Shown: positions 35,780-53,990, numbered from the stretch's first letter. The stretch: 64,000 bases of DNA from Candidatus Hodarchaeota archaeon (GCA_016840035.1 JAEOTC010000038.1:1-64000); one strand, 5' to 3'. Translations and numbers: made by a program. The notes: generated by a model not told the origin, from the sequence alone.

Positions 35780-36748
35780 CTAGCTAATATTATTAGCAAG
35801 TTTAAAGCCAAGTACTTGCCAAGCAAGGACATCTTTAATCATGATATTCGCCGTTGATATAGGATCTTTCCTGATAAGACGTCTAAGACCATTCATGACT
35901 CCTAGCATTATACGTATCTCAGGTTTGAGTAATTTAAATTCAGGAATAATCGGATTAATTTCTCGCATTGCTGTAGTATAGATGAAATCTTGATCATCGA
36001 GTTTCCCTTCCGAGTGTGCTTTACTAAATATCTCCCACATCTGGTTAAAAACATGTTCAGCCTCATCTAAAACAGTTTTTGCTTCATTGTCTATGATACA
36101 ACCAAAATGACATAAACTAATGGTATTATAATCAATATTTTTAAGTTTTTGAATTGTAGAATGGAAATCTTTCTTATTACAAAACGGAGGTAAAATCGGA
36201 GGTAAATATGCGTTATCGCCAGCTTTCATACCGATTGCATCCCCGACAAAGATGTTTTTATTCCTTTCATCGAGGATGGAGATGTGATCGGAAATATGTC
36301 CAGGTGTGTGATAAATCTTTAGAGAGATCCCACCAAGATCAACAGTGTTTCCCTCACTCAAGGGGGTTACATCCTTGATATTCTGAAAACTCCCCTTTTG
36401 ATCAAAAACGTTGTTAAATGACTGATCTTCAAGCAAAGGAATAGCCTCAGTATGGGCAAAAACCTCAATTGCTTTCTGTTCTTTTAACGCTCTTTGTCTT
36501 AATATGGGAACTCCCTGACAATGGTCCCAATGAGAGTGTGTCAGGATAATATAATCTGGGGGAAAGGCGTCTAGCTGCTTTAATGCTTTAATAATCCGTG
36601 GTGCGCCTGATCGTGTCCCACTATCAATTAAACAAGACTTCTCTGCTTGAACTAAATATACTCCTCCCGCGCCTGCAACATCAACATAGCCAAAATCAAT
36701 TAGAGTGGTATTGGAATTTATAGGTCCTGGTATCCTCATTCCAGTCAA
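35780..36748 (-). CDS. metallo-beta-lactamase fold hydrolase
   Basis: THSHWDH, TPGH, GD, HFG. Confidence 0.9.
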   Translation of the reverse strand: MTGMRIPGPINSNTTLIDFGYVDVAGAGGVYLVQAEKSCLIDSGTRSGAPRIIKALKQLDAFPPDYIILTHSHWDHCQGVPILRQRALKEQKAIEVFAHTEAIPLLEDQSFNNVFDQKGSFQNIKDVTPLSEGNTVDLGGISLKIYHTPGHISDHISILDERNKNIFVGDAIGMKAGDNAYLPPILPPFCNKKDFHSTIQKLKNIDYNTISLCHFGCIIDNEAKTVLDEAEHVFNQMWEIFSKAHSEGKLDDQDFIYTTAMREINPIIPEFKLLKPEIRIMLGVMNGLRRLIRKDPISTANIMIKDVLAWQVLGFKLANNIS

Positions 36749-37015
36749 AATTTCTCCTCCTTAAACATAAAACATTAGAAATTTGGTTATCAAAATCCAC
36801 TCATGGAATTTAACCTATATAAAACTTGGGAACAAATTGCTTTTCATGGGATCAGAGATAATCTTGACACATTTTCTTACCCAAAAAGCTATACTCATGG
36901 GTGGGGTAATTCTTGACCAGAGACTCCCCAAATGATTGTAACGGAACAAAAAAGAGAATAAAAGCAGCTGCACCTGCTACTAGCCCACGAAGAAAATCCA
37001 TCTTAACCAAAGCAT

Positions 37016-38479
37016 CTATTTCCTGTGATCTGAATAGAGAGATTTAATATACTCAATAGGGGGTTTCCAATCATCAGGAAGAGGACTTTTATAGGGGGTC
37101 CGAGTGATCTTTTTGTTAAATTCGCTTTTTGCTTGTAATACTAGCTCAGGATTGGTAAATAATTCAAAACTAGCTAGAGCTAATACTTTTGCTGCATATA
37201 ACATCCCTTTATGTCCAATACTCATTCCTGCTTGGGCAACAAGTTGCCAAGAATGGCCAGGTGTCCCTAATATCGTACAAGTGGTTGCAAATTGGGCTAA
37301 AGGTGTAACCCAGCTTACATCCCCTACATCTGTAGAACCAGGTAGCGTTACACCCCTACTTACAAGAGGTATAACTGTCTTATGTAATTTAACTCCTCTT
37401 AATTTCTCTAACTCTTTCTGCATATCGATAGGGTAAGTTGCAAGAATTCTGTCGAAATAACCTTTCTCAAAAGTTTTGATAATACTATCAGCATAATCCT
37501 GATCACTTTGATCGTACGTTGGTGATCCGATCTGGTTCATCTTTTCATAAAGCAAGTCTTCTAGCGTAAGATTTGGGAGAAGGTTCGCTGATCCTCCCTG
37601 AAAGTCAATTTCAACTTCTGTTTCTGTCATAAGAGCGGCTCCCTTTGCTACTTTGACAACACGAGGATAGATCTCTGCCAATTGGTCAAGCTTAGCAGCT
37701 CTTACGAAATACCATACTGCAGCTTCATCTGGTACAATATTGGGAGCTTGTCCACCTTTTGTGATGATATAGTGTAGTCTTGCATCTGGTATAAGATGTT
37801 CCCTTAAATAATTACACCCCACATTCATTAATTCTACTGCATCAAGAGCTGATCTTCCATGATATGGATCAGCAGCTGCATGAGCAGTTTTTCCTTTGAA
37901 ATTAAAGACGACAGAGTAAATTGCCTGAAAATTGGTTGTTACTACCATGTTAAAATCCCATGGATGCCAAGTCAAAGATATATCAACATCAGAAAACGCT
38001 CCAGCTTTCACCATCCCCCCTTTTGCATCCACATTCTCTTCTGCCGGACAGCCATAATATCGAATAGTTCCTTGAAAATCACCATTATCAAATGACTCTT
38101 TCAATGCTAAACACGCTGTAAGTCCTGCAACTCCTAATAAATTATGACCACAACCATGTCCAGGTGCACCTTCTTCAAAGGGCTTTTTTATTGGATCAGA
38201 CGTTTGACTAAGCCCAGGCAGTGCATCAAATTCTCCTAATATTGCTACAACAGGTTTACTTGTTCCATGACTTGCTATAAAAGCAGTAGGCATACCTGCT
38301 ATGCCTTGTTCAATCGTAAAGCCAGCTTCTTTTAATGTCTCTATTAAGAGATGGGAGGATTTTTCTTCTAATAATCCAATCTCTGCAAATCTCCATATAC
38401 TATCACTAATTTCAATGAATTTCTCTTTATTCTTTTCAATCCAATCTAGAAAATCCAAAGGCAAACCAATGACCTCCAA
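37016..38479 (-). CDS. M20 amidohydrolase, AbgB-like
   Basis: EFDALPG, GHGCGHN, GCPAEE, WHP, GSTDVGDVSW, GHSWQ. Confidence 0.92.
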   Translation of the reverse strand: MEVIGLPLDFLDWIEKNKEKFIEISDSIWRFAEIGLLEEKSSHLLIETLKEAGFTIEQGIAGMPTAFIASHGTSKPVVAILGEFDALPGLSQTSDPIKKPFEEGAPGHGCGHNLLGVAGLTACLALKESFDNGDFQGTIRYYGCPAEENVDAKGGMVKAGAFSDVDISLTWHPWDFNMVVTTNFQAIYSVVFNFKGKTAHAAADPYHGRSALDAVELMNVGCNYLREHLIPDARLHYIITKGGQAPNIVPDEAAVWYFVRAAKLDQLAEIYPRVVKVAKGAALMTETEVEIDFQGGSANLLPNLTLEDLLYEKMNQIGSPTYDQSDQDYADSIIKTFEKGYFDRILATYPIDMQKELEKLRGVKLHKTVIPLVSRGVTLPGSTDVGDVSWVTPLAQFATTCTILGTPGHSWQLVAQAGMSIGHKGMLYAAKVLALASFELFTNPELVLQAKSEFNKKITRTPYKSPLPDDWKPPIEYIKSLYSDHRK

Positions 38480-38653
38480 TTATGCTAATACAACAATTCA
38501 ATTGCAACGATATCACAATTTATCTTTGTTATTATATTCGAAATTGAAAGTACAGGTTTAAGATGAGAGAATATAGAAAAAAAGGAAAAGATGGTTGCTA
38601 GCTCTAAATACGAAAGTAGAATCCAGATCAAACCAAGAATGTATAAAGAAAAT

Positions 38654-39028
38654 TTAGTGGACGACTAAACTAGTTCCACAATTAGGACAAAATTTGGCTT
38701 GGGCAGTATTTTGGGTACCACATTTGATACAAAAGTTAGCGATTTGTCCAACTGGAGCTTGAGGAACGGGTTGAGCACCTGCGTAATATTGTTGACGAGG
38801 TTTGTTCTGGTAACGGATCGGTTCAATAATCCAATAGTATAAAGGACCACCAACCATAATGATAAAACCTACAAAGACCATCAACATCCAGATAGGATTA
38901 AGTAACGAGGAATCATAGCTTTGACCATATTCTTGTTTTCCAATAAAACTTAAAGCAGCAAAAATCGAAGCAACTAACCAAAAACCAAAACCAAAAATCC
39001 CAACACCAAATCCGCGTAAAAAACGCAT
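38654..39028 (-). CDS. small membrane protein with C-terminal zinc ribbon
   Basis: Probable start MRFLRG; two TM helices; FCIKCG..FCPNCG. Confidence 0.75.
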   Translation of the reverse strand: MRFLRGFGVGIFGFGFWLVASIFAALSFIGKQEYGQSYDSSLLNPIWMLMVFVGFIIMVGGPLYYWIIEPIRYQNKPRQQYYAGAQPVPQAPVGQIANFCIKCGTQNTAQAKFCPNCGTSLVVH

Positions 39029-39210
39029 TTCCTCATCATCCTCAAGTTTAGGTTTGTAACAAGTGGGGCTTATAAAAAGGTTTGGAGGGAAGGGGAAAAA
39101 AACCAAAAAAATATGTTGACCTTCGACTTCAAATTGTGAGTATAAATGGTGAAAAAGGAATCCAATTTGGATAAAATCTGTAAAATACCAACCAAACTCC
39201 CCAAAACAGA

Positions 39211-39286
39211 AAAAATGAAAAGAGATGCCGTTTAAACGGTAATCTCAATGCTTAGCTCACGTACCAGCTCTTTGTAGTGATATCTC
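39211..39286 (-). repeat. displaced tfb 3'-end copy 1
   Basis: Encodes RYHYKELVRELSIEITV* plus T-tract; 45/55 nt match to tfb 53991-54045. Confidence 0.9.
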
Positions 39287-39392
39287 CCTAGTAGGGTGAG
39301 GAATACGAAAACAAGAAGGAATTGAAGACTTCGTTTCCTCCCAAAGTATTTTGAATGATTACATAACTGATTCCAGTATTATCCGCTGACTG

Positions 39393-40253
39393 GTGAATGA
39401 TATGTGTAAATACTGCTATCAACACACTCGGAAAATGTGGTATCTCGAAAAAGAATCCTTTGATATTAGATCAGGTAGATTCATGAAAATATTGCCAGGT
39501 AGATTCAGAGAACTGTGGTATAATTTTTACGCTCCTAAGTTACAATCGTTTGTTGATGGAACTACTGGTGACATTGGAGCGAATCCTGATCGTGAACCGT
39601 ACAAGGGTTTACAAAAGATGTTTTACAATTATTTCGCAAAGAACTTTTTAGGTGGTCAGGTCGTTAGCTCCCTCGATGAAATGATGCAAGTCCTTGATCA
39701 AGCAGAAGATATTTTTGTTTCATATTGTTCTTGTAAAAAAACCGCTGGCGGGGGAGAAGATTATCGATGCCTTTTTCTTAATCACAACGCCCGATTTACT
39801 AGAAAACGGCAACTCCAAGGGAAAACAAACAATGAAGGACGTTTCATCGACAAAGATGAAGCAAAAGAAGTAATTCAAGAAAAACGTCGTTTAGGTCATT
39901 ATGGCACAGTTCTGTGGGGATTACGACCGAAAGTAGATTGCATTTGTAATTGTGACCAATATTGTGCGGGTTTATACACTCCCGAAATACGATGGGGATT
40001 ACTACCCTCCTTCACTATTTCTGTAATCGTCGATTCTGATAAATGTGATTCTGATTGTACAGTATGCCTTGATCTTTGTTACCCAAAAGCCATTACAAAA
40101 AATGAGGACGGATTAGTGACTTCAATAGATAATTATCTATGTATAGGCTGTAATCTGTGTGTTGAGAATTGTCCAAATGGAGTTTATGATTCTCAACCAC
40201 GTAAGATATATTATGACGCTTCTATTGGTAAAAAACGCGTATTAGAATATTGA
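39393..40253 (+). CDS. 4Fe-4S dicluster domain protein
   Basis: CSCKK, CICNC, CTVCLDLC, CIGCNLCVENCP. Confidence 0.85.
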   Translation: MNDMCKYCYQHTRKMWYLEKESFDIRSGRFMKILPGRFRELWYNFYAPKLQSFVDGTTGDIGANPDREPYKGLQKMFYNYFAKNFLGGQVVSSLDEMMQVLDQAEDIFVSYCSCKKTAGGGEDYRCLFLNHNARFTRKRQLQGKTNNEGRFIDKDEAKEVIQEKRRLGHYGTVLWGLRPKVDCICNCDQYCAGLYTPEIRWGLLPSFTISVIVDSDKCDSDCTVCLDLCYPKAITKNEDGLVTSIDNYLCIGCNLCVENCPNGVYDSQPRKIYYDASIGKKRVLEY

Positions 40254-40290
40254 TGAAACTATAACAGAATGAGATAAAAACAACAAGATG

Positions 40291-40378
40291 AAAAAGAAAG
40301 GAGATACCGCCTAGACGGTAATCTCAATGTTTAGCTTGCGTACGAGTTCTTTATAGCGATTTCTCACGGTTACTTCGG
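40291..40378 (-). repeat. displaced tfb 3'-end copy 2
   Basis: 79/88 nt identical to 53971-54058; encodes EVTVRNRYKELVRKLNIEITV*. Confidence 0.95.
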
Positions 40379-40469
40379 AAAATCCGAACAGCTATGCAAG
40401 TATCTCAAGGGTAGAGAGATGAGAAGATAAAGTTTATAAGATCTGAAGACTCCTAGAAATAGGATAAGT

Positions 40470-41063
40470 ATGAAAAAAAATAACCGATGTCTTCTTCAGC
40501 TTGTCATTCTAATAGTACTTATCTTGAATCTAATGACAGGGTTAAAACTAATCCGAGGAGGAGAGATGAAAAGGGATCAACTCGTCCAAGTCGAATTATT
40601 ACTATTTCTAAAGGCTGTTCCCATGGAAGATTATCCTACAGCGGTTTTCAGTGGAATTGAAGACTATCAGGTTTGGACTGGAAATGTAACGGTCAATGGC
40701 TCAGTCGCTACAAATAATGACCTCAAAGAAGCAGTTGTGACCCTCAAAAATCGAACGTCAACATTTCTTCACACGAATTTAACGCTAACTAAAGATACGG
40801 ACTACTTAGGTCCGAAAAATCTAGCCTACTTATTCGAAGTAACACTTAATAGTAATGAATATCCAAATGGGTCGTATACATTGTTTTTTCATTTTCTAGA
40901 TACCAAAGGTGCCGGAATGATTTATCATTGGGACATCAGGATAGCTAATGCTTCAGATCATCTCTCTCCAGCAATAGGCCTCCCTCTGAGTTTCCTCACA
41001 CTGTTTTCTATTATTACCATTCGTCGAAAAGTTCCACGACTATTCAAGGAAGAGAAAAAATAA
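40470..41063 (+). CDS. secreted, C-terminally anchored hypothetical protein
   Basis: Signal peptide-like N-terminus, beta-rich core, TM helix with RRK tail. Confidence 0.75.
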   Translation: MKKNNRCLLQLVILIVLILNLMTGLKLIRGGEMKRDQLVQVELLLFLKAVPMEDYPTAVFSGIEDYQVWTGNVTVNGSVATNNDLKEAVVTLKNRTSTFLHTNLTLTKDTDYLGPKNLAYLFEVTLNSNEYPNGSYTLFFHFLDTKGAGMIYHWDIRIANASDHLSPAIGLPLSFLTLFSIITIRRKVPRLFKEEKK

Positions 41064-41120
41064 AGGAGAGAATACCTAGACGGTTATCTCAATACTAAGC
41101 TTACGTACAAGCTCTTTATA
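41055..41120 (-). repeat. displaced tfb 3'-end copy 3
   Basis: Encodes YKELVRKLSIEITV*, identical in protein, with 7 synonymous differences in 45 nt. Confidence 0.92.
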
Positions 41121-41244
41121 AATGGAGTTCTCAATCTTTTATTATGTACTTGCACTTCGGCATGATTTCAGTCAGTTTTGAATGAGAATCCTGAAAAGGA
41201 TATAGTGAGGAAATTTTTCAAATCACGAAATACTCCATTCTTAT

Positions 41245-41451
41245 ATGCGTGAAGGAGGGATAATTGAACATTTGTACTATTCTCCAATATATATAGGAAA
41301 TTATCCTGATGGGGACTGGAATGAATCATATGAGCTTCACGATTATATAGGGGGTTATATTATGGGTGGAATGAACCCCACATGGTATTTGCATCCTGAT
41401 ACAGAGAACAGAGTTTATAAAAATCTAGATCAATGGGATGGACCTATTTAA
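41245..41451 (+). pseudogene. short gene fragment
   Basis: 68 aa ORF directly after a tfb repeat; looks 5'-truncated. Confidence 0.35.
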
Positions 41452-41698
41452 TGATCTTTAAAAGAGAGCTCATTTAAATTTAAAAAAAGAGAATAATAAC
41501 TATAATTTGTAGGGTTAATTAACCATATGTTCACATTTCAAATACAAAATAGTTCTCGTGGAAATCGTAAAAATGTGTGATTAATGCATTATATGATAAG
41601 TATAAAAGCAAATAAAGGACTAGAAATTACTAGTTTTTTTCAGTTAACTGAAAAAAATAAGAATTCAGTAAAAAAGACTTGAATGAGCTGAAAACAAG

Positions 41699-42763
41699 AT
41701 GAAAAGGGGAAAAAGAGGATATTATCTATTATTAGTGAATCTGAGTCTGGGGTTATTACTATTACTAAGTGGATGCACGCTATTACCAACGAGTGAACCA
41801 GAGGAGATATTATCATTTGATCCAAATACTGCAACCATATATAATCCGAAAACAAACATTTCAGAGAGTTTTTATGTCAGGAACATGAACAGGAGTGGTA
41901 GTACTTTCTACCATGAAGATCAAATGAAAATTATAGTCGGAGTAAGAGATTCTAAAGGACTTCCAGGAGTAGCTGTGAATTTACATTTGAGAGTTATCTT
42001 TGACTGGTATGGAAATACAGATATTGTAAATTTAACAGAAGAATTCGGCCTCAAAATGACCACTAATCAATCAGGAGCGGTGTGTTTGATTTGTACATAT
42101 AATCAATATACATGGCCTCAAGGGTCTTATACCACTGAAGGAATACTTGAGATTTCTTCTTCTCAGCTAAATAATACAAGAGGATCCTCTGGAAAGCTAG
42201 ATTTTACCTATTATCATAAAGAAATCACACGAAATTCAACAGTAGAGGGGGGGATAGCAGTTATAAATGCTTTAGAAAAAATGAATCTGATAGAAGAAGC
42301 CAGTTTACTCGGTGGGGAAGACAACCTATACCCAAACTGGAATAGTCAATATTATGAATACTACGATATTAATCAAGTAATATTAAACCAATCTACCATT
42401 GAATTCTATACTAATTATCGCCAGCAACCAAGAGTTGAAGTCTACTATGTAGCATGGACAATCCTGTACGAAGAAACGAATTTAACATACAATATCATCA
42501 GAAATAACTGGAGTACATATATTGGGGAAGATTATGGATCTTTACTGATCAGTGATGAATATCTTGGAGAGAATTGGCTAATAACTGAACCAATCACAAA
42601 AGTAAATCTTACAACAGGTTGGTTAGTCATGCAAATTTTATATATTGATTCATTCCAAGAACCACTAAACGGTTGGACAAGAGTAGTTTATCAAGTTAGC
42701 CTTGTAACCATAGATATGCAACTTCGATGGTTATTATCTAGTTCCTTTACAGCAATAGCCTAA
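41699..42763 (+). CDS. putative lipoprotein / surface glycoprotein
   Basis: Basic and hydrophobic N-terminus ending LLSGC; many NxS/T sequons. Confidence 0.75.
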   Translation: MKRGKRGYYLLLVNLSLGLLLLLSGCTLLPTSEPEEILSFDPNTATIYNPKTNISESFYVRNMNRSGSTFYHEDQMKIIVGVRDSKGLPGVAVNLHLRVIFDWYGNTDIVNLTEEFGLKMTTNQSGAVCLICTYNQYTWPQGSYTTEGILEISSSQLNNTRGSSGKLDFTYYHKEITRNSTVEGGIAVINALEKMNLIEEASLLGGEDNLYPNWNSQYYEYYDINQVILNQSTIEFYTNYRQQPRVEVYYVAWTILYEETNLTYNIIRNNWSTYIGEDYGSLLISDEYLGENWLITEPITKVNLTTGWLVMQILYIDSFQEPLNGWTRVVYQVSLVTIDMQLRWLLSSSFTAIA

Positions 42764-42945
42764 AAATTCGGAATTAACTGAAGATACTTGAACTAAACAT
42801 TAATATGCGTGTTAACCGAGAGGACTGAAAAATTCCACATTTCTAGTAAGAAATCTTTTTTTTCCTTTATAGACTCGGGAGAATTGTTGAAACTGAAGAA
42901 TGAAACCTTGGATATGTGATTTAATCCCTTCCACCCAAAACGAGA

Positions 42946-43018
42946 AAAAAGAAAGGAAATCCCGTCTAGGCGGTAATTTCGACACTAAGTTTGCGTACGA
43001 GCTCTTTGTAGCGATTTC
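42946..43018 (-). repeat. displaced tfb 3'-end copy 4
   Basis: 66/73 nt identical to 53971-54043; encodes NRYKELVRKLSVEITA*. Confidence 0.95.
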
Positions 43019-43170
43019 ACAAAGTAAGTTCATGTTTAGAATAAGAATACAACAATTAAGATATTTAATTGTTGAAAATCAAATCCTTCATTAATTCACT
43101 ATCGAATAGAAAATCACAAATAGGAGAGAGTAGATGTGAAATACGCTTCCTTTTGAGGGATGAGATAAAC

Positions 43171-44142
43171 ATGAATGATATAGAATTGCTGCTAGTTTTT
43201 GGTATTACAATACTCATTTCGTCAGGAATTACCTTTTTTATCCTCAGGTATTTCTTTGCTACACGACTGAAAGGTATAGAAAAATCATCTGATACAATCT
43301 CTAAAATATCTGAGGGAATGGTTCAACAATCTAATAGCTTCATTGATCTAATGAAAAACAGTCTTAATACGCTACAGACGGACGTAATGGGACAATTAAA
43401 AGAATTACGGGAAATGTCTCGGGATCTTCAGACTACTCAAAAAGATACTCAGAGCTCTTTCGAAAAATTTGTCAGTTTAGTACGTATGCGTCCCCAAACA
43501 AAAGGCGAAGTAGGAGAAGGTATCGTACGTTGGGTATTAAGTTCATTACCAGCAAATTCATGGAAAGAGCAAGTAACAATCTCCGGAGGACGGGTAGATT
43601 TTATAGTATATTTACCACCAGATCAAGAAAAAGTTCTCATTGATTCAAAATTTAGCTTTCCAACAGAATTATTAGAATCCGATAATCTAGTTGCTGCTGA
43701 CCAACAAACCATCAACAAAATTAATCGAGGGATAATCAAGAGAAGTAAAGAACTCGAGAAATATTTAGTCCCAGAGAATACAAATATCGGTTTTTTACTC
43801 ATGTACATTCCAGATATACTATTTTCCTACCTATCTGATACCACATTTAAAGAATTGACAGGGAAGAAAATTATTCCAGTTAATGTGTCAGGTCTTTTAT
43901 CAACTTTATTGATAATTTCCCGTCAAATTCAAGTATTTCGAATTGGCGAGGCTATTTCGCGTTTAGAATCAATCAAAACAACTTTCGACAGTGAAATTGA
44001 TGCTATTCAGAAGATAACTAAAACAAGTAAAGGTCAACTTCAGAAAGCACTCACAAACGTCGAAAAAATCGATGTTCAACTTGATTCCACTCGACGGAAG
44101 ATTTTTAGAGAGTTTGGATTAATTGAAGAAGAGAGTACTTAG
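43171..44142 (+). CDS. RmuC family protein
   Basis: TM helix, coiled coil, KGEVGE, RVDFIVYLP, IDSKF, LMYIP; start moved to ATG 43171. Confidence 0.82.
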   Translation: MNDIELLLVFGITILISSGITFFILRYFFATRLKGIEKSSDTISKISEGMVQQSNSFIDLMKNSLNTLQTDVMGQLKELREMSRDLQTTQKDTQSSFEKFVSLVRMRPQTKGEVGEGIVRWVLSSLPANSWKEQVTISGGRVDFIVYLPPDQEKVLIDSKFSFPTELLESDNLVAADQQTINKINRGIIKRSKELEKYLVPENTNIGFLLMYIPDILFSYLSDTTFKELTGKKIIPVNVSGLLSTLLIISRQIQVFRIGEAISRLESIKTTFDSEIDAIQKITKTSKGQLQKALTNVEKIDVQLDSTRRKIFREFGLIEEEST

Positions 44143-44159
44143 GATTAAAGAGAAGGCTG

Positions 44160-44957
44160 GTGAATTTAATGAGTAATTTGAAAGATAAATCAAAAATTTG
44201 TCCATATTATCAAAAACCATGCTTATTAGAGAAGTGTCTTGCCTACAGTGGTGAGACTTGCCTAATTATTCCTTTGGGGAGATTAGAAAGGGAAACTACT
44301 ACAAAAGTGCCTGTAATCCTCAAGACTAAATCCATAAAAGAATTAGCAGAAAAACTTGCTGATTATTATTTGGAAAAATATCCCGATGGAGAAAATTATC
44401 GATATACTGACACTTCCCTTTTCTGGAGCAATAGAATTGGAGTGAAAGAAATCTATAACCTCCCTTCGGACATCCAAGAAAAGATTCAAGATGTGGAAAG
44501 ACTTGCAGAGGACATAACAGAAGATAGGAAAATCCCCGAAGAATTAAAGAGCCAAAAACCTGAGAAGATAGCAGAAAACATGGTCAAATGGGCAGAAAAA
44601 AATTTTGATATCACTAGATATGTATATTTTAGAAAATACTGGGGATCCAAAGGATTGCCCGAATCTTATTATTTTTCAGATAGATATCGGCCGAAAGCTG
44701 AAAAATGTGAGTTACTGGCTGAACAAAAATTAGAGGAAATTCGTGAAAAGAGAAAGAAGGAGAAAAAAGAGAAAGAGAAACAGCAAGCATTAGCTGAAAT
44801 CGATAATATCATTAAATGGTTAAAAGAGAAACGGTTGGTGAAGCTCTCAAAAGCGAATTTAAAGCTTTATTTTTCTGAAATAGGTATGAAGGTCTCTCCC
44901 ACTAATCGTCAGAATGTATACATAAGGGTAAATGAAATTTTAAAACAAGAAAAATAG
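44160..44957 (+). CDS. hypothetical protein with Cys-rich N-terminus
   Basis: CPY..PCL.EKC..Y...C; internal repeat LAEKLADY..FWS / IAENMVKW..YWG. Confidence 0.7.
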   Translation: MNLMSNLKDKSKICPYYQKPCLLEKCLAYSGETCLIIPLGRLERETTTKVPVILKTKSIKELAEKLADYYLEKYPDGENYRYTDTSLFWSNRIGVKEIYNLPSDIQEKIQDVERLAEDITEDRKIPEELKSQKPEKIAENMVKWAEKNFDITRYVYFRKYWGSKGLPESYYFSDRYRPKAEKCELLAEQKLEEIREKRKKEKKEKEKQQALAEIDNIIKWLKEKRLVKLSKANLKLYFSEIGMKVSPTNRQNVYIRVNEILKQEK

Positions 44958-45013
44958 GGGGCTAAGTGATAAAAGTGATAGACCTAGAAATTTATAGCGA
45001 TGGAGGGTATTAA

Positions 45014-45874
45014 TTGAGGAAAACTCGAAATAAGAGAAGTACAAGTTTACTATTAATTTATATTGCCATCAATCTTGGTTTAATTCTCCCAATGGGAGTA
45101 TCAAACGCACTAACCACGAATAGAACACAGAATGAATATACACGAACATTTACTTGTAATAAAGACGCGTATGTAGACTCTTCGAACCCAACTTCAAACT
45201 ATGCTAATGCAGATTTAGAGGTTTCAAACTCATCATATCGAGCAAGACGTTCTTATCTATCCTTCGAAATTCAAGACCTACCTTCAGATGCTGATATAAA
45301 AGAGGTAACATTCGGATTAAGCGTGAAATTCTTGCCTTATGATGACCATACCGTTCCATTAGATATTTGGAAAACAACTTACTTTGATGAAGATATCGTT
45401 ACTTGGGAAAATTGTCCTCAAAGAACTGTTCTCATGATACAAGTCGATATTGCTGAAAATAAACGCTGGAGCATTCCACTGGAAAACCATGGCATTACTG
45501 GAAATTTAAATCTCTATATTTGCTTATCCACCGATCTCGACAACTCTGCACCCATTACATTCGATTCTAGAGATGATATGTGGAATCCACCAAGAGTAGC
45601 AGTTACTTTCGAAGCATTATCCATCGATGAAAGTCCAAATGGAACAGTAGACTTAGTGATATTCCTAATTTTACTTGGTCCAATTGGAGGAATTGGATTA
45701 GCAATATTTCTAATGGTGAGAAAATCAAATAAGAGAAAAACAAGTTTTAGTATTGTATATCAAGAACCGAGAATTTCTCAAAAATCCGTAACTATAGACC
45801 AATTTTGTGGCCAATGCGGTGCTCCTCTGGATTCGACGAATGTTTTCTGTCCGTCCTGTGGGAAGAAACAGTGA
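45014..45874 (+). CDS. DNRLRE-like domain, TM helix and zinc ribbon protein
   Basis: DAYVDSSNPTSNY, RRSYLSF, VTWENCP, FDSRD..PRV; FCGQCG..FCPSCG. Confidence 0.8.
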   Translation: MRKTRNKRSTSLLLIYIAINLGLILPMGVSNALTTNRTQNEYTRTFTCNKDAYVDSSNPTSNYANADLEVSNSSYRARRSYLSFEIQDLPSDADIKEVTFGLSVKFLPYDDHTVPLDIWKTTYFDEDIVTWENCPQRTVLMIQVDIAENKRWSIPLENHGITGNLNLYICLSTDLDNSAPITFDSRDDMWNPPRVAVTFEALSIDESPNGTVDLVIFLILLGPIGGIGLAIFLMVRKSNKRKTSFSIVYQEPRISQKSVTIDQFCGQCGAPLDSTNVFCPSCGKKQ

Positions 45875-45914
45875 GGATATACTTCTTCGTGAGAAGTTAA
45901 AACTGGGTGAAATT

Positions 45915-47036
45915 TTGAATAGAACTAATCTCATGAAACTATTTCAGCTCGAGGATAACCAGGAAATTTTTGATTTAGCCCTTACTCCAAAATCGTGTGG
46001 TGGAGGTGACGAATTCAAACTTTTAGCCCTTTATGGGGATAAAATCATTGACTTAGCTCTGATCATTGATTTTTCAAATCAAGGATTCACAAATACGGGA
46101 GTAATCTCACCTGCTATTGATAGCTTTCATAATGAAGATGCTCTCAACGCACTAGGAAGATATCTAGAAATCGATCATTTGATGAATCCACTTGATAAAT
46201 CCAAACCGATCTCAGATGGTGATGTGAAAGAAGGAGTAGAAGCTCTTATAGGAGCAGCATATCAAAAACATGGATTAACCACATGTATCAAAATTGTTCA
46301 ACGTCTATACGAACAATCGGAATCTTTTTCTACAAAACCGGGAGAGGAAAAAGCTACTATCCTGACGGAAAACTTGGTAGGGATGTTACAAGAGTGGTTA
46401 GCAAGCCAAGGCCTTGGAATACCTGTTTATGAAGGGATACGAGTTGGAGGAACTAATGACAATCCATTATGGAGATGTCAAGTTTCATTTGAATATCATG
46501 GAGAAAAAGTCAAGGAGAAAAGTGATATTTTTTCCAATAAAAGACTCGCTAAGAAGAATGCAGCCCAGAAAGCATTGGTTGCATTAGGAATAAGGAAAGA
46601 TAATGTAAGCAGAGTTTTTGGGTCGATTCAGGAGGTGAAAATTCCTGAAACAGCAACTCAATCTCTCCAAGAACGAGAAATTCTCTTTACCAAAGGAGGG
46701 AGGGGAGGGCATTTTATCACAGGAGAGATACAACTAACAACTCAAACGGGTGAAACTGTCTTAGAATGGGCAGAAAAGAAGATAAAAAAGAATCCTTATG
46801 GAAGCTTGATTCTCCTAAGTGCACGTTTAGAGGAAATAAGTGGATCTTCTTGGTCAACTTCCTTGGAGGATCAGGAGCTAATTCTACTAAATATTGTTAT
46901 TGAAGACATGCCCTATTTTGAAATAGGAAAAGGAAAGTCAAAAACAAAAGCTAGAAAAGATGCTGCGCAAAAAATAATAAGATCATCTAATCTTATCAAA
47001 TGGATTGCTCAAAAATATTCAACCATACTAATCTGA
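45915..47036 (+). CDS. RNase III-like nuclease with two dsRNA-binding domains
   Basis: LALYGD, EGVEALIGA; dsRBD motifs LQEW..NKRLAKKNAAQKAL and GKGKSKTKARKDAAQK; start inferred from GGTGA SD. Confidence 0.8.
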   Translation: MNRTNLMKLFQLEDNQEIFDLALTPKSCGGGDEFKLLALYGDKIIDLALIIDFSNQGFTNTGVISPAIDSFHNEDALNALGRYLEIDHLMNPLDKSKPISDGDVKEGVEALIGAAYQKHGLTTCIKIVQRLYEQSESFSTKPGEEKATILTENLVGMLQEWLASQGLGIPVYEGIRVGGTNDNPLWRCQVSFEYHGEKVKEKSDIFSNKRLAKKNAAQKALVALGIRKDNVSRVFGSIQEVKIPETATQSLQEREILFTKGGRGGHFITGEIQLTTQTGETVLEWAEKKIKKNPYGSLILLSARLEEISGSSWSTSLEDQELILLNIVIEDMPYFEIGKGKSKTKARKDAAQKIIRSSNLIKWIAQKYSTILI

Positions 47037-47042
47037 AAATGT

Positions 47043-47114
47043 AAAAATTAAGGAGATACCATTTGATTGGTAATTTTCATACTAAACTTATGTATGAGCC
47101 CTTTGTAGCGATTT
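47043..47114 (-). repeat. displaced tfb 3'-end copy 5 (most decayed)
   Basis: AAGGAGATACC..GGTAAT..GAGCCCTTTGTAGCGATTT aligns without gaps to the tfb end; the stop codon is lost. Confidence 0.8.
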
Positions 47115-48185: not shown

Positions 48186-50042
48186 TCAGAAGGATTGGAA
48201 TCGGTTCCTTAAGACTGCACGAAGGTTTCTGAAAGAGCGAAACAGCTGCAAATTCGGAAGATGATGTTGATTGAACATGGCACGATTATCAAGAATTAAC
48301 CCTGTGGCTTGATCTACTTCAGAGCGAATAGCACGCCCCAAACACTGGCGGACCTGTGTGAAGAGATAGCGTTCTATTAACGTCCATTTAACAAAATGGA
48401 GATGACGATAACGGTTAAAATAGAGTCTATAAAGCAAATTGTACACCGGAGTGGGTGCTGGAAAGGGTAAGCCTATTAAAATCACCATTCGTACACGACT
48501 TCGGCCAGTTTGAGGATCTCGAACTTCGACTCCTTCACTAAACTTCCCGCCATAAACTGCAAGCACCACACTTGGGTCCCCATTCATTAATTCAGAGAGG
48601 AATGTAATCTGACCCTTTCTAGGTTCACGATAGAGAGACAGTTTTTCATTCAAATGCTCTTCTAAAAGTGGAAATAAGTCATCAAGAAACTCATAGGACG
48701 GGACAAAAACCCAGGTATGATCAGGAATTTCAAGTGCGACCTCCTTCACAGTTTTTGCACACCAACGCAGGAACTTCTTTGTACGATTACGATGAGAACT
48801 ACTCACCTGCGGATGAATAAATGCAGCCACAAGTAATTGCTGAATACGCGATTTAGGAGTAGGAACGTGGTGCAAATGGTACATATTCCACGGTTTTTTT
48901 TTTAATCCATAATAATGCGAGTAATATTTGAGATATTGAAAAGTGGCAGAAAACAGCACTGTCCGGGAGAACTGCCGATTCACATATTCAAAGATTTTCG
49001 ATGGATAGGGATCGAGTTGAACTAATCCTTCCTCCGTGTTCACCCAATATCGGCCTTGACGCTCAACAAAAGAGCGCACAGCCAGTAAAGCTTCTAGATC
49101 GAGAGGAGAAAGAGAATATCGAATACCTTTCTGATGAAGGAACGAATCGATTTGAGCTAGATAAGAACGATCAAGAGTTGGGGGACGTTTAACATACCCA
49201 TACTTTCGCTGGCATAGATTTTGCAGAATTTGCACAACAGGAAAAGCTCCGATTGACTCAACCAACGAAAGTTGTTTCCGAGTGACTGTAGCCTCTATTG
49301 TTGGCCCAAAATTGTGAGCTTCATCAATAATAGCGAATCTATGACTCCAACGAAAACCATAATCATGCGCTTTCCAGGTGAATCGAGACAGGGAGCGCTG
49401 GAGAGAGTGAGATTCCAAATATCCCTGCGGGAGTAATATAATATTAGCCTGAGGAAGCAAACGTCGGATGACTTGAGCAGGACAGCCATAGGGAGTGAGA
49501 AGCTCCTGAAAACCGGCAAATGATGAAGGACAGTGCTGGAGGGATATTTGAGGAAGAATCTCTCTTAGAGAGGATAACGGTAAAAAACGAGTTTTTTTCT
49601 TTCGAGGACAATGAAAACAGTCATTTTCAGGAGGTAAAGGACAGAGATCTTTGCTAGCGATCAAAGGAAGTAAGGTTAACTTGTCTGCCGGAGGGTTAGA
49701 GTAATATTCTTTCAGAGTTTTGAGAAACACTGATCTAAGTTGTGCTTTGGTTTTAGAAAAACACCAGAGTTGATATTCACCGGTCTTCATCAGATCCCAG
49801 AAGGCAGAAAACGCGGTGACGGATTTACCAAACCCAGTGTAGGCATTAATCGCAATTCGGGGATAAGCAGCAATTAAAGCTAGGACCTGTGCCTGACCAC
49901 GACGAAAGGAGGGAAAAGGAAAATGCTGGCGAATTTCAGGGGGCAATTCTTCATCCTTGAAAGACGAATGAGCCGCACCTGCTTTAAAAGCATCTGAATA
50001 ATAGATAAAAATTCCCTCAAGAAGGTTTTCCCGTATACACAT
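48186..50042 (-). CDS. Rad3/XPD/DinG family Fe-S helicase
   Basis: FRRGQ, AYTGFGKS, Cys cluster, IIDEAHN, SAT, GKFSEGV, GLPFP, QCLGRAIR. Confidence 0.9.
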   Translation of the reverse strand: MCIRENLLEGIFIYYSDAFKAGAAHSSFKDEELPPEIRQHFPFPSFRRGQAQVLALIAAYPRIAINAYTGFGKSVTAFSAFWDLMKTGEYQLWCFSKTKAQLRSVFLKTLKEYYSNPPADKLTLLPLIASKDLCPLPPENDCFHCPRKKKTRFLPLSSLREILPQISLQHCPSSFAGFQELLTPYGCPAQVIRRLLPQANIILLPQGYLESHSLQRSLSRFTWKAHDYGFRWSHRFAIIDEAHNFGPTIEATVTRKQLSLVESIGAFPVVQILQNLCQRKYGYVKRPPTLDRSYLAQIDSFLHQKGIRYSLSPLDLEALLAVRSFVERQGRYWVNTEEGLVQLDPYPSKIFEYVNRQFSRTVLFSATFQYLKYYSHYYGLKKKPWNMYHLHHVPTPKSRIQQLLVAAFIHPQVSSSHRNRTKKFLRWCAKTVKEVALEIPDHTWVFVPSYEFLDDLFPLLEEHLNEKLSLYREPRKGQITFLSELMNGDPSVVLAVYGGKFSEGVEVRDPQTGRSRVRMVILIGLPFPAPTPVYNLLYRLYFNRYRHLHFVKWTLIERYLFTQVRQCLGRAIRSEVDQATGLILDNRAMFNQHHLPNLQLFRSFRNLRAVLRNRFQSF

Positions 50043-50817
50043 GAGGAGTCAAAGGTTTGGAAGCTTTTTTCTTCCTCTTTTTTGACCGAAATTCTCGAAA
50101 ATAACCCCTGAATTCTACCACTTGATCATAGATCTTGTGTGTCCACGAATTTTGCCAGAAACGAATCCGATGTTCTTTGTGTTTTAATTTCGTAATATAA
50201 CAGAAATAGGGAAAGGCCTCCCAGGGGTGGGTTTGAAGCAACTTATCGAGATCCCCACGAAGAGTAACGAGAAAACCCATCTGTTTAAAGGAAGCGAGGG
50301 TAGCAAAACCCCTCAATCCACTCGGGGGAAGAAAACAGGTATCATATCCGTCAAAAACTAAAGCTGTAAGCATAGGATGTCTAAGAATAGGTTTGAAAAA
50401 TTCACGGTCGAAACTCTTGGCAAATAAAGTGTGTTTATCAATTCGACTTAGATAAGAGGTGGGAAGTTGCTTTTGAGATCGGAAATTAAGGACACGAAGA
50501 ATACGTTGAACCTGATAATCCTCATTGAAATCGTAATACAAAATTTGCCATGGTTTTGGACTGCTCAAGAGGCAGGAGGCAACGAGTTGAGCAAGAAACA
50601 GGCTTTTTCCAGCGTTTTCCGGACCAGCAATGATAATGGGCCATTGCCAGAACCAGCCACCTCGCCATGTTCGATCCAAAGACTGTAAGTACGTAGGGAT
50701 CGGTTTACGTGGAGGAAGGGAACTATCGCACGGAACAGCATGTTTAATAACTTGGGATAACAAATCATCTAAAGACTCGGAGTCATTCCTAGATGAGAGA
50801 GGTTTTTGAGAAACCAA
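50017..50817 (-). CDS. divergent RecA/RadB-like ATPase
   Basis: IPTYLQSLDRTWRGG, GPENAGKS, LYYDFNE, LVFDG. Confidence 0.75.
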   Translation of the reverse strand: MVSQKPLSSRNDSESLDDLLSQVIKHAVPCDSSLPPRKPIPTYLQSLDRTWRGGWFWQWPIIIAGPENAGKSLFLAQLVASCLLSSPKPWQILYYDFNEDYQVQRILRVLNFRSQKQLPTSYLSRIDKHTLFAKSFDREFFKPILRHPMLTALVFDGYDTCFLPPSGLRGFATLASFKQMGFLVTLRGDLDKLLQTHPWEAFPYFCYITKLKHKEHRIRFWQNSWTHKIYDQVVEFRGYFREFRSKKRKKKASKPLTPHVYTGKPS

Positions 50818-50916
50818 AAATATACACCTTCCATTTACTAGATATCGGGTTGTCCCCTTTTATATCTGAAAAGATCTAGAAAATTGGAAGAGGACCCAAG
50901 CTCAAGTACTTTTGAA

Positions 50917-50923
50917 TATATAA
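50917..50923 (+). promoter_or_regulatory. putative TATA box for the structured RNA / LAGLIDADG transcript
   Basis: TATATAA just upstream of the hairpin-dense region; a divergent TATAAAA lies at 50858-50864 on the minus strand. Confidence 0.45.
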
Positions 50924-50944
50924 GGGAGGGGCAGAATCTAGTAC

Positions 50945-51815
50945 GGTTCTCTCTTTAGTACCATTCAGGCAGCTATAGTAGGTGAGAATTGTGAATGACC
51001 ACTCACAATGATCTTCACATACGTAGCGAAAAAGTGCTAGTCGCTAGCATTTGCCTTGCACTTGCTTAAAGAGGCAGGTGGATAAACAAACACGGTTGAA
51101 AACCGATGTTGGCAAGTGAAACACGAGAAAGTAAGAGGAAAACTATCCAGTTATGGCAAACTGGAAAATTTAGTCATATTTTGTTCGTGAATGAACTGGC
51201 CCTGTTTCCTCAGAAGAATCAGGTAGATAAGGTTCAAGAATCAGATCAATTAAACCTGGTTCAAGGTACGGATACGAAAACACAAAGAACGCGGAATCCG
51301 CAAAGACAAACAATAACCCCAATCCAATACCCACCAGTATACCCTCTTCAACTGGGAAATACTGGCCTTGTCGACTCTCCAAGGTGGATCGAGTCACACG
51401 ACAAGCAATTCTTTACGAAGGAAACGAAAACCCCACACGAAGGGAAAATGGAACAATACCCAAAAGAACAACACCAGCGTTTAATAACAAAACAACCATA
51501 TTCGACTTACACTCACGGTCAGGAAGAGACGCGGAAGTGTGTGTCAGTCAAGCGGAGTGTATCCACTCAAAACCATATCCAACTACCACGGGAAAGCATC
51601 CCTCCCAAGGGTGCTAGGCCTCAGAAGAGATGTGTCGTAAGACAGGTCTCTTCTGAGGATCCCACGAATATGGGCCCTTGTCATGGTGACATGACCAGGG
51701 TAGGTAGATACTCTACCCAAGGTGAACTGACGATGTCACAAACCAACCCTCTTCCTACGGAAGGAGGGGCGCAGGCCCCACTTCCTGACCGTGTCATCAC
51801 GGGGCAAAACGCCCC
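50945..51815 (+). ncRNA. candidate large structured RNA
   Basis: More than 15 consecutive hairpins with G-U pairs on the + strand, GUAA and GUGA tetraloops, A-rich linkers. Confidence 0.6.
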
Positions 51816-53214
51816 ATGGCCGGTCGTCCCCGAAGAGTACACCTTCCAGGAGGTGTCTCTTTGGGAGTTTACCAATCTCTATGTCCTGTTGGGCAAAGAC
51901 GATTGGATTACCCTGTCAACATTGTTGCAGGGAATCAATCTCTCGGCAATAAGTCGAGAGATTGGGATAGGCGTATCCGTCCTATCCAACATTCGAGAAT
52001 CCCCCGATCAAACGATCGCGGTGGCGAATCTCGAACATCTCTGCCACTATGCAGGGATGGATCTTTCACAGGTCGAGCGAAACGCGCGAGCGGTTCGTTT
52101 TTCTAAACGAGGTGACCTGGAGTACCTCAAATTTCCATTCGTCATGGATATTTATGCCTGGCGAGTCCTTTGTCACATTGCTGGAGATGGTAATGTGCAT
52201 TTTCGCAAGTATCCTGATCTCCGGTGGATTCAACTCCCCGAGCATCAGGATCCAATGCGGACTCTTCTATCCAATCTGAGTCGTGATCCAACAATTGATT
52301 ACGAACGGATGATATATCCTAAGACATTAGCTTATGCTATCTTGGGAACCATTCGAGGGATCACATTCCGTGACCTTCGGACCCCTTCATTCATACAATT
52401 TGTACTTGATTTACCCAGTCGCTATCGTGATTGGAAAGTACAATTCCTTGCCGCTTTCATCGTAGATGATGGATGTATTGGTGAGGACATATCTATTTCT
52501 CAGAAGGATGAACGAGTCCTTCGCCTCATCATGCAACTATGTGATCAGTTGGGATATGATCATTCCCCGCTATATCCAAGTAAGCGTGATGGAGTAAATA
52601 ACTTTCAGTTACGTCAGGAAGGAATTCAAGCCTTCTTATATGATGTAGCGCCCCTTTATGCACGTGATCCACTTCTAGGTCTCTGGCATAAGCATACACA
52701 ACTCTTAACTGTTGCTAGTTCTTTTTCTTCAGAAAGAAAACTAGATCAAAAGTTATCTGTTCATGTGTGCACCACTATCCTTCAGATTTTGGAGGATGGA
52801 ACTATCTATTCCACGGATGAACTGCGTGTTCATCCAGCTCTTCAAGTTTATCTTGAAGGGTACCCATCCTATGTTTTAAACAGAAGATTGGGAATTCTCC
52901 ATCGTTCTATGAATCTCATTCATGAGGACATCAAGAACAATGGAACCTCTTACCGGCCTAAACGCTGGTATGTTCCTCGTTGTACTACTTCAGAACACTT
53001 GATTCAAGTGTTTCATGCGAAGTACAACAATCGTGCTCATCCACAATCCTACAAACGTAGGAACATTACTTCTCAGATGGTAGAGGACGCCATTGAGGAA
53101 CTTAGTGCGCAGGGGGTCAAACCTAGTGCACTAAATGTCTCTCGTTTCATAGGGTGCTCGAAAAAGCAGCTCTATAAACGAAAAGACTTACGGGTGTACT
53201 TCATTGGTAAATGA
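51733..53214 (+). CDS. freestanding double-motif LAGLIDADG endonuclease-like protein with HTH domains
   Basis: VLCHIAGDG and FLAAFIVDDG; N-terminal XRE-like HTH (LSAISREIGIGVSVLSNIRE); C-terminal HTH; GGTGA SD at 51721 (frame open from 51106). Confidence 0.75.
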   Translation: MSQTNPLPTEGGAQAPLPDRVITGQNAPWPVVPEEYTFQEVSLWEFTNLYVLLGKDDWITLSTLLQGINLSAISREIGIGVSVLSNIRESPDQTIAVANLEHLCHYAGMDLSQVERNARAVRFSKRGDLEYLKFPFVMDIYAWRVLCHIAGDGNVHFRKYPDLRWIQLPEHQDPMRTLLSNLSRDPTIDYERMIYPKTLAYAILGTIRGITFRDLRTPSFIQFVLDLPSRYRDWKVQFLAAFIVDDGCIGEDISISQKDERVLRLIMQLCDQLGYDHSPLYPSKRDGVNNFQLRQEGIQAFLYDVAPLYARDPLLGLWHKHTQLLTVASSFSSERKLDQKLSVHVCTTILQILEDGTIYSTDELRVHPALQVYLEGYPSYVLNRRLGILHRSMNLIHEDIKNNGTSYRPKRWYVPRCTTSEHLIQVFHAKYNNRAHPQSYKRRNITSQMVEDAIEELSAQGVKPSALNVSRFIGCSKKQLYKRKDLRVYFIGK

Positions 53215-53838: not shown

Positions 53839-53969
53839 ATATTTACCTCCTTAGAGTCAATAAACGTGAAGGATTTTTAGAAACCCAAGTTCATTAGATT
53901 GTTAAATCCTAACAAAAAAGAAGAACATAATGAAATTAAGAAAAAAAGAATCCAAGCAATTATTATAAT

Positions 53970-53981
53970 AAAAAAGAAAGG
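53970..53981 (-). terminator. T-rich terminator of tfb
   Basis: CCTTTCTTTTTT just after the tfb stop; a similar tract is kept in each repeat copy. Confidence 0.55.
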
Positions 53982-53990
53982 AGATCCCGT

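Follow-up and report, generated by a model that had tools for sequence, protein, structure and literature searches.

Direct repeats of a gene's 3' end around inserted DNA are the usual signature of site-specific integration, as established for tRNA genes. In archaea, tandem integrative elements of the SSV and pNOB8 integrase type, located at the 3' ends of tRNA or protein-coding genes, are bordered by such repeated 3' gene fragments, while the target gene stays intact. Integrons, which have been reported also from archaeal metagenome genomes, are fixed platforms that gather short accessory-gene cassettes; their content differs between close relatives, and the cassettes are parted by a repeat of ~60-100 nucleotides (nt) with an imperfect palindrome. 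In T4-like phages, free-standing endonucleases (Seg and Mob, for example mobE; PMC2790892) sit between genes and not in an intron or intein, and their intronless homing spreads them by break repair with conversion of the flanks, leaving patchy and defunct copies. In fungal mitochondria, finally, a mobile endonuclease ORF (mORF) brings in a foreign C-terminal segment for its host gene, and the native segment ends up downstream of the insert, the two differing mostly at synonymous sites; examples are atp6 of Allomyces macrogynus and atp6, atp9, cox2, and nad3 of Glomus (PMC3630166 and its reference 48). Here, we describe a locus that shares features with all of these systems. It lies in a 64,000-nt stretch of a Candidatus Hodarchaeota archaeon genome (GCA_016840035.1, JAEOTC010000038.1:1-64000; hereafter the window), where pieces of the 3' end of tfb, a gene for a transcription factor of the TFIIB family, are strung between unrelated genes.

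The genome studied here (assembly of 4.3 Mb in 293 contigs, GC 36%) is called G000; related genomes carry other G-numbers, L048 and L050 are metagenome contigs, and u702 and u195 denote proteins of 702 and 195 amino acids (aa). The repeated sequence consists of the last ~70 nt of tfb and ~21 nt beyond it. BLASTN against the window and the whole assembly recovered exactly five extra copies, all on the tfb strand and within 39211-47114 (E 2e-29 to 1e-6; Table 1), and no comparable tfb-tail copy elsewhere in the assembly. Accessory genes separate these displaced tails, and the gene of u702, a putative LAGLIDADG endonuclease, lies between the innermost tail and tfb. The tfb 3' end was also searched in 60 related genomes, and the DNA around the matches was fetched; arrays of one to five displaced tails are present in at least eight other genomes of this Hodarchaeales (Asgard) genus. 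The fragments are probably displaced former gene ends that were made by recombination, and not att sites. As to the process, we lean toward an endonuclease-triggered replacement of the tfb end, with u702 as the candidate driver of the arrays of displaced tails and cargo. A wider and more tentative reading is that the array could be a fossil record of repeated invasions of tfb by a free-standing LAGLIDADG endonuclease, each swapping the promoter-reading helix region and the C-terminus and dragging genes along; the locus would then be an integrase-free capture platform with the tails as portable homology arms.

The closest known parallel is the fungal mitochondrial mORFs. In both cases, a LAGLIDADG gene (or a GIY-YIG gene in mORFs) is found at the 3' end of a conserved gene, a displaced duplicate of the C-terminal segment lies beyond the insert, the duplicated length varies, and a horizontal origin has been proposed; divergence between the two copies is mainly synonymous, and the displaced one is similar to alleles found in close relatives. 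Unlike the mORFs, the tfb arrays reside on an archaeal chromosome at an essential transcription-factor gene, and u702 is encoded on the opposite strand with the u195 gene in between, neither fused to nor co-transcribed with tfb. Furthermore, the event is repeated, with one to five displaced tails in a row (five in G000 and in G001), neighbouring tails are separated by one to five unrelated cargo genes, and most units have lost the endonuclease. The gene position of u702, the proposed spread by break repair, and the patchy distribution with defunct copies recall the T4-like phage enzymes, which are of the GIY-YIG or HNH type and not LAGLIDADG proteins; in contrast to the tfb arrays, phage homing has homology on both sides, no duplicated target fragment, and no cargo arrays. 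The resemblance to integrons extends to the fixed platform and the variable cassettes and perhaps to the palindromic repeat, whose hairpin may simply be the tfb terminator, but there is no IntI and no attI (no PF00589 match in the window or on array contigs), the repeat is a piece of a protein-coding gene with variable boundaries and not an attC site, and the cassettes can be multi-gene and in either orientation. In contrast to the SSV- and pNOB8-type elements, neither a complete nor a split integrase gene was found in any array examined, and genes of plasmid or viral origin were not found either. A literature search found no description of such an array, and the Asgard mobile-element papers checked mention neither tfb nor LAGLIDADG.

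The divergence of the tails from tfb is biased toward wobble positions. An in-register, codon-level reading of copies 1-4 reproduced the codon counts given in an earlier note on this DNA (Table 1), and pooled against the resident tfb these copies show 25 synonymous and 10 non-synonymous differences. The expected synonymous share is 0.23 under neutrality (p=1e-9) and 0.37 if only the resident lineage was constrained (p=4e-5). Similarly, the resident consensus differs from ten displaced copies of four genomes by 50 synonymous and 8 non-synonymous changes, compared with 31 and 0 for seven resident alleles. The tails 3' of the 197-aa cargo gene shared by G000 and G020 differ from each other at seven sites, all seven of them synonymous, and the G020 copy at this gene has the TTTATTTTTT variant in common with copy 3. 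Copy 3 shows 3 differences from the resident allele of G002 and 7 from its own resident, a comparison of low resolution given the short segments. As the earlier note had pointed out, a T in each of the five copies stands opposite the plus-strand C of the resident at position 54021; most resident alleles of other species carry the fragment state and the resident state occurs only in G000 and G002, so the latter looks derived. At the level of sequence, these comparisons support the view that the fragments behave as former functional tfb ends, and not as neutrally decaying duplicates or pieces of paralogues. The three tfb paralogues of the assembly (39-46% aa identity to the resident) were considered as a source of the tails, an origin that the earlier note had named as speaking against its view, and were rejected: they give no BLASTN match, and their C-termini are different. 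The claim that each tail evolved under selection in a separate tfb allele holds as far as the tails look like former working ends (25:10 and 50:8); its second half, that every acquisition replaced the tfb end, goes beyond what these counts establish.

In G001, G004, and G020, amino-acid damage in the tails tends to rise with distance from tfb (1, 1, 2, 3, and 6 changes in G001), which is expected for insertion next to tfb. The G000 window is the exception to this trend: its proximal copy 5 is the worst preserved, in agreement with the earlier note (Table 1). A joint arrival of nested blocks, as suggested there, is a guess, since the window departs from the trend of the three other genomes at copy 5. 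Within one genome, the tails have lineage-specific states in common; the four tails of G004, for example, all read ACT...TAA...CAGT. The G000 fragments fall inside the diversity of the nearest species. The coding-like look of the fragments could also stem from ongoing gene conversion by the resident tfb.

The boundaries of the repeat are variable on both sides. In the window, the tails begin in or beside the codons for VTEVTVRNRYKEL, at distances of 45-71 nt from the end of the stop codon, and their inner ends are ragged, as first described. Change-point estimates for 17 fragments place all inner ends 28-72 nt before the stop, mostly at -51 to -72 and none deeper; by eye, three fragments start at -71/-72, which is the first valine codon of VTEVTV. 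Instead of a single invariant crossover, which the earlier note had held to be incompatible with its proposal, there is a spread over -28 to -72. Based on established TFIIB/TFB structures, we take the helix of this region to be part of the helix-turn-helix (HTH) of TFB that reads the B recognition element (BRE). The architecture of the resident protein is an N-terminal zinc ribbon followed by two cyclin-like repeats (Pfam Zn_Ribbon_TF and two TFIIB repeat matches), and support for the HTH in this tfb is limited to the Pfam TFIIB match and, at residues 301-331, a match of the sigma-70 region 4 type that stays below threshold. At the outer end, the match to the resident stops at +20 to +23 in all window copies. 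This seemingly fixed end (~+21) holds only relative to the own resident, because the resident is followed by a different cassette; the similarity of copy 1 to the native tfb-downstream DNA of G002 extends to about 39195 (+38). Across genomes, the outer end varies from +20 to +30 in G000, G004, and G020 to +66 in G014, +92 in G021, and about +250 in G001. In the latter (contig C11, 50042-64681), the repeat unit reaches up to about 320 nt and comprises the tfb tail, a hairpin (GACTAG...CTAGTC), and a second, GC-rich hairpin with a T-run and compensatory changes; it also takes in ~30 codons from the end of the endonuclease gene.

A conspicuous difference between two sister genomes falls in the same zone. 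The tfb bodies of G002 and G014 are 97.5% identical, and 32 of 32 coding differences are synonymous. Eight wobble differences are packed into positions -84..-57, seven of them in consecutive codons, and third-position differences amount to 11/34 in the last 100 nt versus 16/306 before (p=8e-6). The codons of this patch fall into two haplotype classes that cut across the relationships of the tfb bodies. The patch marks a conversion tract of small extent at precisely the place where the displaced tails start. That G014 had its entire tail replaced was rejected as an explanation: the difference is confined to the short patch at -84..-57, and past the stop codon the G014 resident is closer to G002 than the displaced copy is.

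Every tail, like the resident gene end (53967-54005), contains a hairpin with the tfb stop codon in its loop. The hairpin has a 10-bp stem, GAGAT(T)ACCGT-CTAG-ACGGTATCTC, with a T-run after it. In a comparison of 16 tails, 90% of the positions are paired, and three pairs show compensatory changes, such as ACCA/TGGT in copy 5, which keeps the hairpin, and ACTG/CAGT in all four G004 tails. The hairpin probably reflects the tfb terminator, and it may slow decay of the outer half of the displaced tails. Use of the tails as shared two-way terminators for convergent cargo genes was considered and set aside, the T-run being present on the tfb strand only.

The u702 gene is convergent on tfb and single-copy in this genome. 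Among 23 u702 homologues, the motifs HxxGDG and FxxDDG are invariant and lie ~95 residues apart; Pfam LAGLIDADG_3 was matched in one homologue only (P0009, E=5.9e-6). The AlphaFold model is confident from about residue 223, with a core pLDDT above 90, and residues 1-222 are predicted to be disordered. The best Foldseek match of the core is I-DmoI (2vs8_A, E=1.4e-5, TM 0.63), an archaeal monomeric double-LAGLIDADG enzyme, followed by other meganucleases and intein endonucleases. The region for residues ~1-222 (51106-51770) is poorly conserved in the family; because it aligns without frame breaks in G020, it looks coding and not like an RNA gene.

Of the 21 genomes of the genus, 11 gave a match to the u702 family; the 40 other genomes of the class that were searched gave no match. 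Several copies carry internal stops or are reduced to stubs. The gene converges on tfb in six contigs (G000, two contigs of G020, G011, L048, and L050), although the copies on the metagenome contigs L048 and L050 are just 40-49% identical. C-terminal stubs of u702 follow the resident tail in G008, G014, and G021 and three of the six units in G001, and one lies beside a three-tail array in G013. In total, a u702 gene or stub abuts tails in 10 genomes or contigs; G002 and G004 have no u702 at tfb. The occurrence of intact, broken, and absent copies at the same site among close relatives is the pattern of a homing-endonuclease life cycle. A shorter u702 paralogue (~410-426 aa) is located between the same two neighbours in G002, G008, and G015, away from tfb (L051:6101-7330, L052:6308-7588, and L055:728-1969), and may be a domesticated or differently targeted LAGLIDADG protein.

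The interval between tfb and the metallo-beta-lactamase-fold (MBL) gene is a recombination hotspot in this genus. In the empty-site genome G002, the order is MFS-tfb-MBL, and the MBL-fold gene directly follows tfb at a distance of 214 nt; in the window, 17 kb separate tfb from the same gene of the distal flank. The orthologous tfb genes of related genomes (94-99% aa identity) are followed by displaced tails in G020 (2), G004 (3), G014 (1), G021 (1), and G001 (5, spread over 14.6 kb), and G015, G017, and G013 have two or three tails each on contigs without an assembled tfb. A second tfb-u702 array with two tails was found in the G020 bin, on contig C49 (L054). It belongs to a divergent lineage and does not form a close pair with the main G020 array; the tfb ends of the two arrays share only 78-79% identity, and the second array may therefore come from another organism in the bin. 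As for closer relatives of G000, an exact-protein look-up was empty, and a metagenome scan with the MFS neighbour gave a single contig, 65% identical.

The cassettes measure 0.7-7 kb and hold one to five cargo genes between tails, all of them ordinary accessory genes. In the window, the cargo between the tails (39393-47036) is entirely on the plus strand, opposite to tfb. Cargo differs across species and includes 4Fe-4S, RmuC-like, RNase III-like, solute-binding, PIN, and beta-lactamase-fold proteins as well as AhpC-like, P-type ATPase, esterase, and NosD-like proteins. Some cassettes are common to two genomes, namely the helicase/ATPase/u702/u195 block and the 197-aa protein (G000 and G020) and a PIN gene (G004 and G014). 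The cassette nearest tfb (48186-53214) has a GC content of 0.41-0.47 compared with 0.36 for the genome. Its helicase and ATPase pair accompanies u702 also in G020 and L050, and in L048 only a Helicase_C_2 gene is present, at the locus edge. Between u702 and the helicase, L048 (2203-3639) contains an Argonaute-like (Piwi) gene and L050 a Zc3h12a-type RNase gene; thus, variable genes accumulate inside the u702 cassette too. Homologues of u195 occur after a resident tail (G020) and after a displaced one (G004), and the protein has no family, defence, or atlas match. A homologue of the RNase III-like cargo protein lies outside the last tail in G004, beside the MBL-fold gene; a decayed tail was sought after this G004 gene, but the alignment scored 20, equal to the shuffle mean, and the idea of copy 5 as an ancient companion of the RNase III gene was dropped.

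No recombinase is associated with the arrays. Pfam searches of ~35 array open reading frames, covering ~30 cassettes of nine genomes, returned no integrase, resolvase, or transposase, and the trans-acting integrase that the earlier note had set as the other outcome contrary to its proposal was found neither in the window nor in any related array. Searches with PF00589 and PF00239 covered six genomes. PF00589 detected two genes in this assembly, both off the array contig, and one strong, apparently orthologous Xer-like match in each array-bearing relative searched, again off the array contig; PF00239 (resolvase family) had no match in G001 (with its six tail units), G004, and G020. Rfam and tRNA scans of the window were empty, and thus there is no tRNA target in the window.

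Table 1. Tails, resident gene, and neighbouring features of the tfb array in the window.
Feature	Position	Strand	Description or basis
Copy 1, farthest from tfb	39211-39286	-	7 synonymous (one is TAG>TAA) and 3 non-synonymous differences
Copy 2, longest tail	40288-40381	-	Five synonymous codons and S>N, plus T>S at the inner edge; inner end ~71 nt before the end of the stop codon
Copy 3	41055-41120	-	7/7 differences synonymous; overlap, at the outer end, with the convergent 197-aa cargo gene (3' end)
Copy 4	42945-43031	-	Core with 4 synonymous differences and I>V, V>A; inner edge degraded, with extra changes and an in-frame stop
Copy 5, nearest tfb, most decayed	47043-47114	-	15 differences in 52 nt, 8 amino-acid changes, stop codon lost
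Resident tfb, 337 aa, TFIIB family	53991-55004	-	Translation; Pfam TFIIB E=5e-43, Zn_Ribbon_TF E=7e-20
u702, 702 aa, free-standing, double-LAGLIDADG endonuclease-like, convergent on tfb	51106-53214	+	Motifs, AlphaFold, Foldseek
u195, 195 aa	53251-53838	-	Between tfb tail and u702
XPD/DinG-like helicase (618 aa) and overlapping RecA/DnaB-like P-loop protein (266 aa)	48186-50817	-	Pfam Helicase_C_2 E=2e-25, AAA_25; PADLOC DinG E=1e-44
4Fe-4S protein	39393-40253	+	Cargo
197-aa protein	40470-41063	+	Cargo
354-aa protein	41699-42763	+	Cargo; no usable family, defence, or atlas match
RmuC-like protein	43069-44142	+	Cargo
265-aa protein	within 39393-47036	+	Cargo
Zinc-ribbon protein	45014-45874	+	Cargo
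RNase III-like protein with double-stranded RNA-binding domain	45807-47036	+	Cargo; ends 6 nt before copy 5
Distal flank: zinc-ribbon protein, M20 peptidase, MBL-fold gene	35780-39106	-	Synteny, family scans

These features can be combined into the following model. Incoming DNA from a related cell would bring along the tfb end of the donor, including the hairpin and T-run at the stop codon, and the donor's tfb-downstream genes. The tfb side would be joined by homology and the far side within the old gene end, 28-72 nt before the stop, so that repair would be homologous on one side only and the old end would therefore survive as a non-functional tail. Through repeated events of this kind, tails and cargo would accumulate into an array. 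As trigger, we consider a double-strand break made by u702 most likely, possibly near the HVTEVT codons, ~72 nt before the stop. The endonuclease gene would then decay to a stub, as in the classic homing-endonuclease cycle, and leave the site open to re-invasion. The preference of the earlier note for break-and-repair over an att crossover is strengthened, because recombinases are absent from the arrays, a LAGLIDADG gene or stub stands beside the tails, and the patch in G002/G014 is located where the fragments begin.

Several observations weigh against an endonuclease-driven origin of the array. Under strict tfb-side insertion, copy 5, which adjoins tfb, is expected to be the youngest tail, yet it is the most decayed, and any order of events proposed for this array would be tentative. 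Cassettes 1-4 of the window contain no endonuclease remnant, and u702 is present only in the cassette nearest tfb. Not every member of the u702 family is tied to tfb, because the shorter paralogue holds a conserved, unrelated locus. A recoded, protected target in endonuclease-bearing genomes was looked for and is not supported, as the two haplotype classes are distributed independently of whether the endonuclease is there; resident alleles with and without the endonuclease are not consistently different in the proposed target zone and thus give no hint of protection. The repeated association of u702 with the helicase and the ATPase could mean that the three form a conserved host module and not a selfish element. 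The direction of the G002/G014 patch is ambiguous, so that either lineage could be the converted one, and no donor allele was identified for any tail. Finally, both cleavage by u702 and its target site are features that we infer.

Capture by homology alone would account for some of these points. Here, the conserved tfb would serve as a one-sided anchor for homology-facilitated illegitimate recombination, with u702 a mere passenger; in a variant, circles of tail and cargo, formed by recombination between tails, would be re-inserted at any tail in the manner of Campbell. With 94-99% aa identity in the genus and 75-88% nt identity between species (97.5% for the G002-G014 pair), tfb is similar enough for such an anchor, the cargo consists of ordinary accessory genes, and most cassettes are without an endonuclease remnant. 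The non-chronological order of the window array is expected if any tail is a target, and the lineage-specific states shared by the tails of one genome (such as those of G004) fit as well. Random junctions, however, should sometimes fall hundreds of nt inside tfb, and all 17 lie within 28-72 nt of the stop; moreover, the wobble patch of G002/G014 coincides with this junction zone, and an endonuclease gene or stub abuts tails in the 10 genomes or contigs listed above. We therefore regard capture without a cut as unlikely.

Site-specific integration appears improbable. The cassettes would in this case be remnants of elements whose attP mimicked the tfb 3' end, the tails would represent attL/attR sites, and the integrases would have been lost or replaced in trans by a host Xer protein acting on the stop-codon palindrome. 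The tails do match the signature of direct repeats of a gene 3' end, the 10-bp-stem palindrome with its compensatory changes sits on the stop codon, and each genome keeps a Xer-like tyrosine recombinase. On the other hand, ~30 cassettes of nine genomes lack any integrase, transposase, or other mobile-element hallmark and are made up of 0.7-7 kb of ordinary genes, and the repeats have no common att core or defined extent, with inner ends at -28 to -72 and outer ends at +20 to about +250. In addition, the G001 repeat takes in the 3' stub of the endonuclease gene. A purely local history, with tandem duplication in the lineage and tails kept coding-like by conversion from the resident without any foreign alleles, is the least plausible account: the lineage-specific states and the position of the G000 fragments within the diversity of the closest species agree with it, but cargo at the same site differs between species, an empty site exists, copy 3 is nearer to the G002 resident than to its own, and conversion leaves the unrelated genes between the tails unexplained.

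The endonuclease-triggered model names a defined cut site in tfb, which is a testable prediction, and the tails mark a variable island that could be used for strain comparison in Hodarchaeales. If the model is true, gene gain in Asgard archaea would be possible without integrases or transposases: an endonuclease beside a near-invariant essential gene would open the chromosome, and homology at tfb would admit DNA of related species together with its cargo. From the chain of displaced ends, one would learn in which order past events took place and which alleles were once in use, and a process known so far from fungal mitochondria would extend to a cellular chromosome.

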